This document shows, piece by piece, positions 44,717-49,483 of a stretch of DNA of 64,000 bases (positions are counted from its first letter, which is position 1; each line of letters opens with the position of its first letter). Source of the DNA: Escherichia coli (GTDB taxonomy: Bacteria; Pseudomonadota; Gammaproteobacteria; Enterobacterales; Enterobacteriaceae); assembly GCF_002854065.1 (NCBI RefSeq), contig NZ_CP024147.1; one strand, given 5' to 3'. Both the position numbers and the translations under genes were made by a program. The notes beneath the pieces were generated by a model. It did no database searches and had not been told where the DNA came from. It saw only the letters and a program-made list of their open reading frames with translations.

Positions 44717-45213
44717 ATGGCTGATAGTTTCCAGAATGAAGTGCCAAAGGCACGTATTAATCTAAAACTTGACCTGCATACGGGGGGGCCAGCAAGAAAA
44801 CTGAGCTTCCCCTGAAATTACTGGTGGCGGGAGACTTCAGTAATGGGCAGGAGACTGCGCCGCTATCAGATCGCGGAAAAGTAAATCTGAACAAAAATAA
44901 TTTTGACGCAGTCCTCTCCGAATATTCCCCAAAAGTTAATCTGACCGTTAAAAACACACTTGCTGATGATGGTAGCGAAGACAACATCTCTCTGATATTC
45001 CAGAGCATGAAGGATTTCACCCCTGAGCAGGTTTCCCGGCAAATTCCTCAGCTGAAGGCAATGCTTTCTATGCGTAACCTGCTTCGCGATTTAAAAGCGA
45101 ACTTGCTGGACAATCAGGCTTTCCGAAAGGAACTGGAAAAAATTCTGCTCGACCCGGCATTAAGCGCAGAACTCAGAGCCGAACTTTCAGCCCTGGCCCC
45201 AAAACACTCCTAA
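44717..45213 (+). pseudogene. tssB: T6SS sheath small subunit TssB (VipA/ImpB), disrupted by a -1 frameshift in a G7 tract
   Basis: Frame 1 from ATG 44717 reads MADSFQNEVPKARINLKLDLHTGGPARKLSFP then stops at 44813; a second frame from 44788 continues ASKKTELPLKLLVAGDFSNGQE... to 45213; one extra G in the 44782-44788 run would give an intact ~165-aa TssB. Confidence 0.8.
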
Positions 45214-45251
45214 CCGTCACCCGGTAATCACGGATTAACCAAGGAATGCTC

Positions 45252-46793
45252 ATGTCTGTAAAAAATGAAAACGCCGCGGCTGGCGCAAGCGTTGTGCTGG
45301 AACGTCCTGCTGCAGGCGGGGTTTATGCGTCCCTGTTTGAAAAAATTAATCTTAACCCGGTGTCTGAACTGAGCGCGCTGGATATCTGGCAGGACGCGCA
45401 GGCGATGTCAGATGCGACCGCTGATGAACGTTTAACGGCGGGGATGCAGGTGTTTCTGGAGTGCCTGACAAAATCGGGCTCAAAGGTTGAAAAACTCGAC
45501 AAAAACCTGATTGACCATCATATCGCGGAGCTGGACTACCAGATTAGTCGCCAGCTGGATGCGGTAATGCATAGCGAAGAATTCCAGGCGGTGGAGAGCC
45601 TGTGGCGCGGCGTGAAATCGCTGGTCGACAAAACAGATTTCCGCCAGAACGTGAAGGTTGAACTGCTGGATATGTCAAAAGAAGATCTGCGTCAGGACTT
45701 CGAAGATAGCCCAGAAATCATCCAGAGCAGACTGTATAAACATACATATATTGATGAGTACGACACCCCGGGTGGAGAGCCGATCGCTGCGCTGATTTCC
45801 GCTTACGAATTTGATGCGTCTGCGCAGGATGTCGCGCTGCTGCGTAATATATCAAAAGTCTCCGCCGCAGCGCATATGCCGTTTATCGGCTCTGCCGGCC
45901 CGAAATTTTTCCTCAAAGATTCGATGGAGGAAGTGGCGGCCATCAAAGACATTGGTAACTACTTCGACCGTGCGGAGTACATCAAGTGGAAATCCTTCCG
46001 TGAGACGGACGATGCCCGTTATATCGGTCTGGTGATGCCGCGCGTGCTGGGTCGCCTGCCGTATGGCCCGGATACTGTGCCGGTTCGTAGCTTCAACTAC
46101 GTGGAAGAAGTGAAAGGCCCCGATCACGATAAATATCTGTGGACCAACGCCTCGTTTGCCTTTGCATCCAACATGGTACGCAGCTTCATCAACAACGGCT
46201 GGTGTGTACAAATCCGTGGCCCGCAGGCCGGTGGTGCCGTCCAGGATCTGCCAATCCATCTGTACGATCTGGGCACCGGCAACCAGGTGAAGATCCCGTC
46301 AGAAGTGATGATCCCGGAAACCCGCGAATTTGAATTCGCTAACCTTGGCTTCATTCCGCTGTCCTACTACAAGAACCGCGACTACGCGTGCTTCTTCTCG
46401 GCGAACTCCACGCAGAAACCGGCGCTGTATGACACTGCGGATGCAACGGCTAACAGCCGCATTAATGCCCGTCTGCCTTACATCTTCCTGCTGTCGCGTA
46501 TCGCACACTACCTGAAGCTGATTCAGCGCGAAAATATCGGCACCACCAAAGACCGTCGTCTGCTGGAATTAGAACTCAACACCTGGGTTCGCAGTCTGGT
46601 GACCGAAATGACTGACCCGGGCGACGAGCTTCAGGCCTCTCACCCGCTGCGTGACGCGAAAGTGGTGGTGGAAGATATCGAAGACAACCCGGGCTTCTTC
46701 CGCGTCCGACTGTTCGCTATTCCGCACTTCCAGGTAGAAGGGATGGACGTCAACCTGTCACTGGTTTCTCAGATGCCAAAAGCCAAGTCGTAA
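45252..46793 (+). CDS. tssC: T6SS sheath large subunit TssC (VipB/ImpC)
   Basis: About 513 aa; RBS aagga before ATG 45252; recognised TssC-like sequence; directly downstream of tssB. Confidence 0.85.
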   Translation: MSVKNENAAAGASVVLERPAAGGVYASLFEKINLNPVSELSALDIWQDAQAMSDATADERLTAGMQVFLECLTKSGSKVEKLDKNLIDHHIAELDYQISRQLDAVMHSEEFQAVESLWRGVKSLVDKTDFRQNVKVELLDMSKEDLRQDFEDSPEIIQSRLYKHTYIDEYDTPGGEPIAALISAYEFDASAQDVALLRNISKVSAAAHMPFIGSAGPKFFLKDSMEEVAAIKDIGNYFDRAEYIKWKSFRETDDARYIGLVMPRVLGRLPYGPDTVPVRSFNYVEEVKGPDHDKYLWTNASFAFASNMVRSFINNGWCVQIRGPQAGGAVQDLPIHLYDLGTGNQVKIPSEVMIPETREFEFANLGFIPLSYYKNRDYACFFSANSTQKPALYDTADATANSRINARLPYIFLLSRIAHYLKLIQRENIGTTKDRRLLELELNTWVRSLVTEMTDPGDELQASHPLRDAKVVVEDIEDNPGFFRVRLFAIPHFQVEGMDVNLSLVSQMPKAKS

Positions 46794-46811
46794 GGCGAGG
46801 GGAAATCAGGG

Positions 46812-48149: not shown

Positions 48150-49123
48150 ATAAACCCGAACTCAGCCAGATAGAACGTATCTTCTACCCAGGCTGGCTGA
48201 TGGCCAGCCAGTTGCGGAGCGGCCAGGAAGTTCGCGACGGGGAAGGGCTTTACCGCCGGGCTTGCCGTTTGGTGAAAGAGGCAAAAGCTGCGCTCATGGA
48301 GGCAGGCTACAGCGACATCAGCCGCGACCATATGGTGTATGCCTTGTGTGCGCTGCTTGATGAGAGCGTGATGAACAGGGGCACCACCGATGATGGCTAC
48401 CTGACCTGGCACCGAGACCCGCTACCCGGGAGGTCTGACATGGTGGATAAAACGCAGCATTACCGTAATCACTGGGCACAGTGGACGGTTGCCGAAATTA
48501 CGTTTGTGGAACAACACTATGGTCAGTTGGACGTGCGATTTTCAGGAGAAGCCAGCGAGCAGGGATTAACAACTTTTCTTGATGCTTTTGATGAGTCCAG
48601 TCACTGGGTTTTAGTTGTACCATTATCACCCGGCTTGCTTCCTTTTAAAAAATGCCGGGTAACAACGGCGGAACTGGCGGAAACAACATTACCCGCGTCG
48701 CAAGTGCTGGTGGTTGAAAATGAGCAGTGTTTGCATCATCTTCCAGCATTATCTGACACTATCGCGATTTTAGGCTGTGGCCTGGACGTGCAATGGCTAT
48801 CCAGTTCTGTTCTGGATGAAAAACGCGTTGCCTATTGGGGGGACATGGATAGCTGGGGACTACTGATGCTGGCGAGAGCCAGGCGTTGTCGTCCGACGCT
48901 TGATGCCCTGCATATGAACCGTGAGTTGTTTGAGCAGTATGTCAGTCATAGCGCCGTTCCAGAACCGGTCATAGCGAAGGAAGCTGTACCTGATGGCTTG
49001 CTTAACGAGGAGGCCGATTTTTATCGCTACTTAACCCGTTTACCGCGTGGTCGTCTGGAGCAGGAGTTTTTGCCTGTGGGGATTGCGGAAGAGGTGCTTC
49101 TCAGGTGGGGAAAAGAGAGTTAA
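48146..49123 (+). pseudogene. tssL: chimeric ORF: N-terminal ~95 aa of TssL (DotU domain) fused in frame to unrelated sequence with Toprim-like motifs; no transmembrane anchor
   Basis: Start overlaps tssK stop (ATGA); N-terminus IFYPGWLMASQLRSGQ...YALCALLDESVMNRG is DotU-like; remainder lacks the TssL TM helix and contains VLVVENEQ and YWGDMDSWG. Confidence 0.55.
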
Positions 49124-49441
49124 AAAAGTCATGCTTGTTCTGGAAGGTTATTTACGCGGTATTTTGGTAGTGGTTGTTGCGAAAAGTCTGCGTTGATGGT
49201 CCTGATACCTTACCGGGTAGAGGGACTTTGCATCAGTCAGTTTAGATACTGTGGCAACTGTCGCCTTTAGATGGACAAACGCATAAATTATTAACCTATT
49301 GAATTTCTTGTTTTCAGGCAGCAGAGAGAAGGTATATCAGAGGGTACTGAGGTGTATAAACGTCACGAACATCCGTGAAAAGGCGAAAAAAACCAGCCAA
49401 TAGATAATGCTTTGCAATGGCCAGAAATCTACCGTAGCCAG

Positions 49442-49476
49442 AAAGTGAAAAAGCCCCGCTTTGCAGCGAGGCCTTA
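49442..49476 (-). terminator. probable rho-independent terminator of pheV
   Basis: Minus strand gcctcgctgcaaagcggggc followed by T5, immediately 3' of the tRNA. Confidence 0.5.
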
Positions 49477-49483
49477 TGAATAG

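Follow-up and report, generated by a model that had tools for sequence, protein, structure and literature searches.

Gene content of the locus beside pheV

The 64-kb stretch of Escherichia coli DNA analysed here (the window) contains the beginning of a type VI secretion system (T6SS) gene cluster close to the tRNA-Phe(GAA) gene pheV. Four genes on the plus strand follow one another in the order tssB-tssC-tssK-tssL (44717-49123), as an earlier note on this DNA had proposed, and profile searches gave full-length matches for TssC and TssK, a match for TssB after repair of its reading frame, and a match to the N-terminal part only for TssL. The upstream or promoter region of the module is retained on the same strand (44340-44716) and is near-identical to that of the intact locus in E. 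coli PapRG-06-5. It includes a promoter-like element, TTGATC-18-TATTAT (44628-44657), and three GATC sites; it is conserved in Citrobacter amalonaticus and partly in the Sci-1 locus of EAEC, and homology to the T6SS loci of other genera starts at about 44340.

The first gene, tssB (44717-45213, plus strand), is a pseudogene in which a run of eight guanines (G8) has lost one base. The resulting G7 tract (44782-44788) causes a -1 frameshift and a stop after codon 32; the repaired product matches TIGR03358 with 164.9 bits. In alignment, G7 is common to the window and strains CUWW06 (NZ_CP182139) and 100416, in both of which tssB carries the PGAP label 'frameshifted', and G8 is kept in 33F4 and TB06052; the earlier note was right in calling tssB frameshifted. 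G8 is the longest run at this site among 31 homologues, and the site is therefore slippage-prone. The next two genes are intact ORFs on the plus strand that match their models over the full length: tssC (45246-46793) encodes a sheath large subunit of 515 aa (TIGR03355, 677.9 bits) and tssK (46812-48149) a baseplate subunit of 445 aa (TIGR03353, 405.8 bits).

By the tetranucleotide ATGA, tssK overlaps a chimeric ORF of 325 aa and 36 kDa (48146-49123), in which a fragment of tssL and a remnant of jetD are joined in frame. The tssL fragment (48146-48425, plus strand) comprises codons 1-93 of 217 and is 100% identical to residues 1-93 of intact TssL by tblastn. It matches positions 1-89 of 207 in NF038239 with 105.8 bits, below the cutoff of 180, and positions 4-84 of 205 in Pfam DotU; the TssL/DotU match is confined to residues 8-96 of the ORF. 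The fragment stops at residue 93 and lacks the C-terminal membrane anchor, a transmembrane segment (residues 183-208) that is essential in Sci-1 (PMC3426401). Downstream lies the right-end tail of the T6SS block (48426-48525, plus strand), which contains the start (ATG at 48440) and 5' part of a small helix-turn-helix (HTH) gene located after vasL. An 88-bp match to this tail (87.5% identity) is found in about 170 other E. coli genomes, and the HTH gene is a complete ORF of 70 aa in RIVM_C037166; its first 29 codons lie in the 34-residue linker of the chimera.

The remainder of the ORF (48526-49123, plus strand) is a jetD remnant, jetD', corresponding to residues 185-382 of the JetD protein of type I Wadjet and including the entire JetD_C/Toprim domain. 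It matches PADLOC JetD1 (PDLC00532, E = 9e-100, positions 185-381 of 383) and Pfam JetD_C (PF09983, positions 2-178 of 179); the JetD match covers residues 128-324 of the chimeric ORF, with 98.5% amino acid identity to the full-length JetD of strain CX12. The NCBIfam search gave no match for this part or for three fimbrial ORFs; the JetD part was detected with Pfam and PADLOC. The interval 48146-49123 should be annotated as two pseudogene fragments rather than as a gene. A non-coding flank (49124-49483), common to all relatives by BLAST to 33F4, 100416, CX12 and PapRG, separates jetD' from pheV (49484-49559, minus strand; ARAGORN and Rfam). The 3' end of pheV lies 360 bp from the stop codon of the chimeric ORF, in agreement with the earlier note, and yqgA and speC come after the tRNA gene.

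Intact counterparts and the extent of the deletion

An intact 21-gene cluster occupies the same site in two rare relatives, E. coli PapRG-06-5 and 33F4, the order in PapRG-06-5 being tssB...vasL-jetD'-pheV-yqgA. When the 21 proteins of the intact homologous cluster were searched against the window by tblastn, matches were restricted to tssB, tssC, tssK and TssL residues 1-93; hcp, vgrG and all other tss genes are missing from the 64 kb, and the full core set TssA-TssM is not found there. A second, complete T6SS may lie in another part of this genome. Collinearity between the window and the intact locus extends to 48425 and resumes at 48413. From the BLAST breakpoints and a three-way alignment, the junction maps to 48423-48425, in a TAC microhomology within an imperfect CGAGAC-N3/4-TAC repeat, where nucleotide 280 of tssL is linked to the base after the stop codon of vasL, the last gene of the intact cluster; TAC also stands directly 3' of that stop codon. 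The missing sequence amounts to 26.7 kb relative to 33F4 and 29.5 kb relative to PapRG-06-5. The truncation and fusion of tssL described in the earlier note are thus real, but the fused sequence is not foreign: it is the right flank already present beside the intact cluster, namely the 100-bp tail and the jetD remnant.

These comparisons indicate, with a probability of roughly 0.9, that the region represents what is left of a rare, now inactive Sci-1-like (T6SS-1 family) cluster in the variable glcA-pheV segment. Its loss is very probably accounted for by a single internal deletion of about 27-30 kb (range 26.7-29.5 kb) plus a one-base frameshift; the missing genes went in one step and not through gradual erosion from the tRNA side. 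In the lineage of the window, one illegitimate recombination at TAC would have removed everything from tssL codon 94 to the vasL stop, including tagL, hcp, tssH, vgrG, effector/immunity genes, PAAR, tssM, tssA, tssF, tssG, tssJ, tssE and vasL, although 3 bp of microhomology point only weakly to a specific mechanism. Slippage in the G8 tract would have frameshifted tssB before or after this event. The 13 core components, TssA to TssM, are all required for a functional T6SS (Boyer 2009, as cited in PMC3426401). The stump cannot assemble one, because nine of the 13 core genes are absent, TssB is disrupted and what remains of TssL has no membrane anchor, which is an essential part.

The deletion appears to be recent, judging from substitution patterns. 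The sequences of tssC and tssK are the same in all three genomes with the stump (the window, CUWW06 and 100416), and almost all change relative to the intact copies is synonymous: compared with 33F4, there are 34 synonymous and one non-synonymous codon differences in tssC, and 19 and four in tssK. The cluster has decayed independently at least four times among its few carriers, which include, besides the window strain, CUWW06, 100416, TB06052, 23CRST031, UTME-3, the 33F4 clone and PapRG-06-5. It is very unlikely that such repeated erasure in most of them reflects active selection against this T6SS.

Loss of T6SS clusters through large internal deletions has been documented in E. coli (PMC10711316). 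In the ST410-B/H24 and ST131-C2 lineages (Cummins et al., 2023; PMC10711316), a chromosomal T6SS was likewise inactivated by one internal deletion (there about 20 kb), with a junction free of mobile elements, few remaining tss genes and clonal inheritance. Those losses, however, affect T6SS-2 at another locus and have endpoints in rhsG and tssM rather than in tssL and at vasL, whereas the window additionally has the frameshift in tssB and a chimeric ORF that incorporates part of a defence gene. Because E. coli T6SS loss by large deletion has already been published, the present locus is of low interest in this respect and carries limited weight, as one more well-resolved case of E. coli lineages readily losing T6SS clusters by single large deletions.

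The pheV attachment site and alternative explanations

The earlier note regarded the genes as the eroded stump of a pheV-integrated island, of which the eroded, non-functional stump beside pheV is upheld and the integration is not. Islands of the GI-pheV type are defined by an intP4 integrase gene adjoining pheV and by attL/attR repeats of the pheV 3' end (PMC11537424), taken here as direct repeats of its last 19-23 nt. The stump shares its chromosomal neighbourhood with these islands, and 55989_GI-pheV bears a Sci-1-type T6SS (Nhu et al., 2024; PMC11537424). In the window, however, the attachment core (49484-49506) is unoccupied: the 23-mer is present as a single copy, no tblastn match to an intP4 fragment was obtained anywhere in the 64 kb, and the 360 bp beside the tRNA gene are non-coding, consistent with the earlier note's statement that no integrase lies between cluster and tRNA. 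With up to four substitutions allowed, a search that would miss gapped matches, no second copy of the pheV 3' end was found in the window or on the glcA side of intact loci, including the glcA end of the block in locus L003. In four relatives that carry GI-pheV (100416, 33F4, TB06052 and CX12), an attR repeat, TGGTGCC-GGACTCGGAATCGAA, directly follows the jetD'-remnant flank; these copies have a 1-nt deletion and were recognised by direct inspection only. The true pheV islands of the relatives thus sit between the jetD' flank and pheV, and because attR directly follows that flank in all four, the T6SS lies outside the att-bounded island, beyond attR. The right end of the T6SS block falls inside jetD, 958 bp from the tRNA gene and not at it.

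It is consequently improbable that the four genes are the residue of an island integrated site-specifically at pheV that later shed its integrase together with most of the cargo. The short distance of 360 bp, the presence of Sci-1-type clusters on true GI-pheV/pheU islands in 55989 and 042 and the lack of a recognisable attR in one third of GI-pheV islands (PMC11537424) would favour such an origin, but it is already largely refuted by the missing intP4 and second att copy, by the separate GI-pheV with its own attR in four relatives and by the block end within jetD; even in the intact PapRG-06-5 locus, no integrase lies between cluster and pheV. The locus is a case of ordinary gene-cluster decay and not part of the mobile island usual at the neighbouring tRNA, and adjacency to a tRNA gene alone does not place a cluster in a tRNA-integrated island, a point of relevance to annotation. 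Least credible of all is an artefact, in which a collapsed or mis-joined assembly produced the junction and a homopolymer sequencing error the tssB frameshift. Long-read assemblies are error-prone at G-homopolymers and an IS1-bounded rearrangement is present near the stump in the window, yet the junction contains no repeat able to collapse an assembly, and the same junction and G7 tract recur in the independently sequenced complete genomes of CUWW06 and 100416 (Thailand, The Gambia) with 99.9-100% identity across the junction, which also speaks against the misassembly that the earlier note had considered.

A retained or new function of the remaining genes is very unlikely in either of its two conceivable forms. 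TssC and TssK might serve as spare parts for another T6SS, as both genes are undamaged and the promoter region is intact. This intactness is explained by the recency of the deletion, as seen in the lack of differences among the three stump genomes; moreover, components of paralogous T6SSs cannot replace one another in EAEC (PMC5048182), and TssC requires TssB, which is frameshifted here. The chimera (TssL 1-93, the linker and the JetD_C Toprim domain) is in frame, translationally coupled to tssK through ATGA and complete in its JetD_C domain; it is just as doubtful that, expressed from the T6SS promoter, it would act as a free Toprim nuclease no longer controlled by JetABC, such as a new protein with a toxic or defence-related role. 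Such a protein would be the outcome of two successive in-frame fusions. Against it, the chance of an in-frame fusion is 1 in 3, and jetD' copies gather chiefly non-synonymous changes (synonymous to non-synonymous 1:4, 1:3 and 0:2), compared with 12:3 relative to the full-length gene. Under the deletion account, transcription of tssC, tssK and the TssL'-JetD' chimera probably continues, with all three ORFs carried along after a recent event and serving no function.

Wadjet remnant, segment history and kinship with Sci-1

The jetD remnant bears on the history of the segment. In CX12, glcA is followed by jetA-jetB-jetC-jetD and then by the same pheV flank, and the four genes match the PADLOC type I models. 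The C-terminal (Toprim) half of JetD in the window is 98.5% identical to that of this anti-plasmid operon at the same site; JetA, JetB and JetC gave no matches in the window and residues 1-184 of JetD are missing, so that it represents a remnant and not a system. The segment would first have held the type I Wadjet operon jetABCD, with the jetD end abutting the pheV flank. A composite block made up of a Tad/Flp pilus, CS1/TcfC-type fimbriae and the 21-gene T6SS would then have taken the place of jetABC and of the first half of jetD, leaving jetD'. This direction is the parsimonious one, since the full-length gene must have existed before its truncated version. The segment between glcA and pheV is documented here as a replacement hot-spot, distinct from the adjoining att-bounded GI-pheV, with at least three alternative occupants: the yghJ/T2SS genes of K-12, the Wadjet operon and the Tad-fimbriae-T6SS block. 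The earlier note was right that K-12 differs at this tRNA, where yghD-yghJ occupy the position. Literature searches turned up neither the Tad-fimbriae-T6SS block between glcA and pheV nor a Wadjet system at this position.

In 33F4 and PapRG-06-5, the intact cluster is collinear with the one in 55989 that encodes Tle1/Tli1-EAEC, in the order tssB-tssC-tssK-tssL-tagL(OmpA)-hcp-tssH-...-vgrG-lipase/Tle-immunity-PAAR-tssM-tssA-tssF-tssG-tssJ-tssE, of which the window retains the first four genes in order. The intact clusters further share with Sci-1 the short form of TssL and a similar promoter block containing GATC sites. Treatment with an iron chelator is the inducing condition of Sci-1. On gene order and pairwise identities, rather than placement in the clades of Journet and Cascales, the cluster classifies as a rare variant of the EAEC Sci-1 (T6SS-1) type. 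It differs from Sci-1 of 55989 in sequence (74.7% nucleotide identity; 86.6% for TssC and 74.9% for TssK at the protein level), in its position outside GI-pheV rather than on it, and in the deletion of nine core genes in the window. Systems of Citrobacter amalonaticus, Kosakonia, Cedecea, Pantoea, Erwinia and Enterobacter are nearer (84-87% nucleotide identity; TssK 89-95% at the amino acid level). A contig scan with TssK gave only relatives at 84-87% nucleotide identity in several genera, and hence no immediate donor; none has Tad or fimbrial genes upstream. The aai/Sci-2 system had been considered as the closest common E. coli relative and was rejected, the 55989 annotation (tle1/tli1-EAEC, tagL) being that of Sci-1/T6SS-1. 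Strain 100416 carries, in addition to the same stump, a 55989-type T6SS about 40 kb away.

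Gene content of the stump

Family-profile matches bore out the gene order tssB-tssC-tssK-tssL proposed in the earlier note. On the plus strand, tssB (44717-45213) matches TIGR03358 at 164.9 bits once one base is put back; alignment with intact copies upholds the reported frameshift, a G8 run having become G7 at 44782-44788, with a stop after codon 32. The G8 tract codes for the conserved T-G-G-A motif of TssB and is the longest G-run among the 31 homologues examined (others G2-G6); it is lineage-specific and slippage-prone, and could in principle revert. The plus-strand genes tssC (45246-46793; NCBIfam equivalog TIGR03355, 677.9 bits) and tssK (46812-48149; TIGR03353, 405.8 bits) are full-length and intact. 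Downstream of tssK, overlapping it by ATGA, is a plus-strand ORF of 325 aa (48146-49123) with a TssL part and a JetD part. TssL similarity is confined to residues 8-96 (profile positions 1-89 of 207; Pfam DotU positions 4-84 of 205), and the profile score is 105.8 bits against a cutoff of 180. Residues 128-324 represent the C-terminal half of type I Wadjet JetD (PADLOC PDLC00532, E = 9e-100, profile positions 185-381 of 383; Pfam JetD_C positions 2-178 of 179).

The ORF stops 360 bp from the 3' end of tRNA-Phe(GAA) (49484-49559, minus strand), as reported. This is the sole tRNA in the ARAGORN output, and because yqgA and speC come after it, it is pheV. tblastn with all 21 proteins of the intact homologous cluster matched no other cluster gene in the 64-kb window, in keeping with the reported absence of the remaining tss genes, hcp and vgrG; JetA, JetB, JetC and an intP4 fragment had no match within the window either. 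As an observation, the earlier description is confirmed in every detail; two corrections concern its interpretation, namely that the cluster lies outside GI-pheV, the island integrated at pheV, and that the "foreign" part of the fusion is a Wadjet remnant older than the fusion itself.

Intact counterparts and the internal deletion

A megablast search of 5,426 complete genomes of E. coli finds tssB-tssK at ≥97.9% identity in just seven, and the cluster is rare in this species. It is complete, in the same place, in two lineages: the clonal isolates 33F4/33E/32F4, and PapRG-06-5. The intact locus comprises glcA, a wHTH regulator, a Tad/Flp pilus operon, a CS1/TcfC-type fimbrial operon and the T6SS, whose order is tssB, tssC, tssK, tssL, an OmpA-family tagL-like gene, hcp, tssH, a small Rhs-annotated gene, an immunity gene, vgrG, a lipase gene, immunity paralogues, PAAR, tssM, tssA, tssF, tssG, tssJ, tssE, a GIY-YIG fragment and vasL. 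A 621-bp jetD fragment comes after vasL, and in PapRG-06-5 it is directly followed by pheV and yqgA, the same arrangement as in the window.

The window is collinear with the intact loci over 41419-48425 and again from 48413 on. Three-way alignment places the junction at TAC (48423-48425) within an imperfect CGAGAC-N3/4-TAC repeat; these bases are tssL nt 278-280 on the left side and the three bases directly after the vasL stop codon on the right. Collinearity and junction mapping show a single internal deletion, which took out tssL codon 94 through the end of the last gene, vasL. Measured against 33F4, 26.7 kb is missing, and against PapRG-06-5, 29.5 kb; the gap between the two sizes comes from differing effector/immunity regions in the intact loci. 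Thus tssL is truncated and fused as claimed, but the sequence joined to it is the cluster's pre-existing right flank and no new acquisition.

CUWW06 (from wastewater in Thailand) and 100416 (from stool in The Gambia) share both the junction and the G7 tract with the window, which counts against an assembly artefact, and the common lesions of the three genomes represent one event. Their tssC and tssK are identical, and differences from the intact copies are nearly all synonymous (synonymous:non-synonymous codons 34:1 in tssC, 19:4 in tssK), which shows that these genes are intact because the deletion is recent, not through selection.

Between tssE and vasL, the intact rare-variant clusters (L003, L004 and L010) have a pseudogene fragment of a GIY-YIG nuclease. 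Strain 55989, with a broken vasL, has a complete GIY-YIG gene together with a 3'-5' exonuclease at that position. The interval has the look of a variable site of insertion within T6SS-1 clusters.

The Wadjet remnant and the glcA-pheV segment

Between the junction and the jetD remnant (jetD'), 100 bp (48426-48525) carry the 5' part of the small HTH gene found after vasL, with its ATG at 48440; a full 70-aa copy is present in RIVM_C037166 (L092 4975-5187). Similarity to full-length jetD begins at 48526. The jetD remnant in every carrier is an older in-frame chimera of the first 29 HTH-gene codons and JetD from residue 185 onward, so that two in-frame fusions, one after the other, gave rise to the 325-aa ORF.

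In strain CX12, glcA-jetA-jetB-jetC-jetD leads into the pheV-proximal flank that the window also has. All four of its Jet proteins match PADLOC type I Wadjet models, and the window jetD' is 98.5% identical to residues 185-382 of its JetD. Since a truncated gene cannot predate its full-length form, the simplest history puts Wadjet first: a Wadjet operon would have occupied the glcA-pheV segment, and a Tad-fimbriae-T6SS block would later have replaced jetABC and the 5' half of jetD. Synonymous:non-synonymous codons are 1:4, 1:3 and 0:2 among jetD' copies versus 12:3 against full-length jetD; the counts are small, and the mostly non-synonymous differences would fit a decaying remnant. In CX12 (L005 10161-13448), jetC is annotated as two pieces with a gap of ~1.8 kb, the second holding only profile positions 653-1097, and this reference Wadjet may be damaged too.

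GI-pheV has two defining marks, an intP4 integrase beside pheV and attL/attR repeats made up of the final 19-23 nt of the tRNA (PMC11537424). The window lacks an integrase and has the pheV 23-mer in a single copy. A CP4-like GI-pheV is present in 100416, 33F4, TB06052 and CX12, where its attR is TGGTGCC-GGACTCGGAATCGAA, with a 1-nt deletion that has already been described (PMC11537424). This attR comes directly after the ...CCTTATGAATAG flank, which precedes pheV in the window; therefore the T6SS block sits past attR, outside the integrative element. The block's right end falls within jetD, at a distance of 958 bp from the tRNA. The reading as the stump of a pheV-integrated island is accordingly rejected. 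K-12 does have a different island here, as the earlier note says: yghD-yghE-yghF-yghG-pppA-yghJ lies between pheV and glcA. This makes at least three different occupants of the glcA-pheV segment, which is thus a site of replacement.

In 100416 (L007 16292-41058), a 55989-type GI-pheV (Ag43 and yee modules) is integrated at pheV, adjoining the same stump. Sci-1-type tssM-tssA (record position 836999-839418) lies ~40 kb from the stump, suggesting a dead and, probably, a live T6SS-1 paralogue in one locus.

Relatives, recurrent decay and residual function

The nearest common E. coli relative is the cluster of strains 55989 and 042 (74.7% nt identity; TssC 86.6% and TssK 74.9% identical to 55989). 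It encodes Tle1-EAEC and Tli1-EAEC in the same gene order as here, tagL included, and is Sci-1, a system placed in the T6SS-1 sub-family (PMC5048182); aai/Sci-2 was rejected as nearest relative on these same genes. A scan of one genome per species turned up closer relatives outside Escherichia: in Citrobacter amalonaticus, Kosakonia, Cedecea, Pluralibacter, Pantoea, Erwinia and Enterobacter, TssK identity is 89-95%, with 84-87% nt identity over window 44340-48423. None of the related loci examined has Tad or fimbrial genes upstream, and the scan found no immediate donor. GC is 54.9% in the stump, 51.5% in the core flank and 43.8% in the CS1/TcfC-type fimbrial operon remnant (41420-44172), a contrast that marks the T6SS module (~44340 to 48525) as a separately acquired unit.

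Losses in other carriers are independent of that in the window. Two deletions are peculiar to TB06052, one from tssL nt 559 to the 3' end of tagL and one from tagL to a point 268 bp from the att site; 23CRST031 has lost glcA through tssG next to IS1A, and UTME-3 shows an IS3-associated deletion together with a tssM'-tssA'-pheV remnant. A different and widespread stump, of Sci-1 type, is present in about 170 genomes: tssB, kept to about nt 331, runs into the final ~120 nt of vasL, another large internal deletion with an end near the vasL 3' end; in RIVM_C037166 this stump (L092 4512-5088) has the same tail as in the window and lies amid CP4-like island genes. That E. coli loses T6SS clusters by internal deletions of ~20 kb and by IS insertions has been documented before (PMC10711316), and PGAP already labels the locus as pseudogene fragments in two public genomes. 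The feature is real but ordinary: a rare T6SS-1-type cluster copy, recently and clonally inactivated.

Nine of the 13 core T6SS genes are absent, and the TssL fragment ends before the C-terminal transmembrane segment (residues 183-208), which Sci-1 cannot do without (PMC3426401). In EAEC, the parts of one system cannot stand in for their paralogues in another (PMC5048182). With these genes gone, TssB frameshifted and TssL without its anchor, a T6SS cannot be built from the stump. The upstream region (44340-44716) is essentially identical to the intact locus and has a promoter-like site inside a block conserved across genera; this identity and the ATGA overlap make it plausible, judging from sequence, that TssC, TssK and the chimera are still transcribed and translated to some extent. 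In that block (44612-44670), conserved in C. amalonaticus and partly in Sci-1, three GATC sites in ~35 bp overlap a promoter-like TTGATC-18-TATTAT, presumably resembling the Fur/Dam switch of the sci-1 promoter. The doubly in-frame TssL'-HTH'-JetD_C chimera, the sole non-trivial residue of the case, is most likely without function.

Two IS1 copies lie in the window (33555-34323 and 40651-41419). To the left of the second, the ssrS...tktA/speB/cmtA/yggP region is in K-12 ascending order; to its right, the fimbrial usher through pheV, speC, nupG and mltC are in descending order. In CUWW06 the tkt region is on the speC side, and this flipped order suggests that the window genome has an inversion of about 35 kb, bounded by IS1. 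Neither glcA nor the Tad operon is in the window. The usher in the fimbrial remnant is cut by IS1, with only its last ~213 codons left, so the adjoining adhesin module is likewise dead; the three ORFs after it (261, 296 and 169 aa) had no NCBIfam match. Rfam matches, which served solely to orient the window, are ordinary E. coli core features: 6S RNA (ssrS; 7014-7197), Sib antitoxin RNA (7846-7996), two ES036/CssrF elements (21071-21113 and 35633-35675) and naRNA4 (61480-61550).
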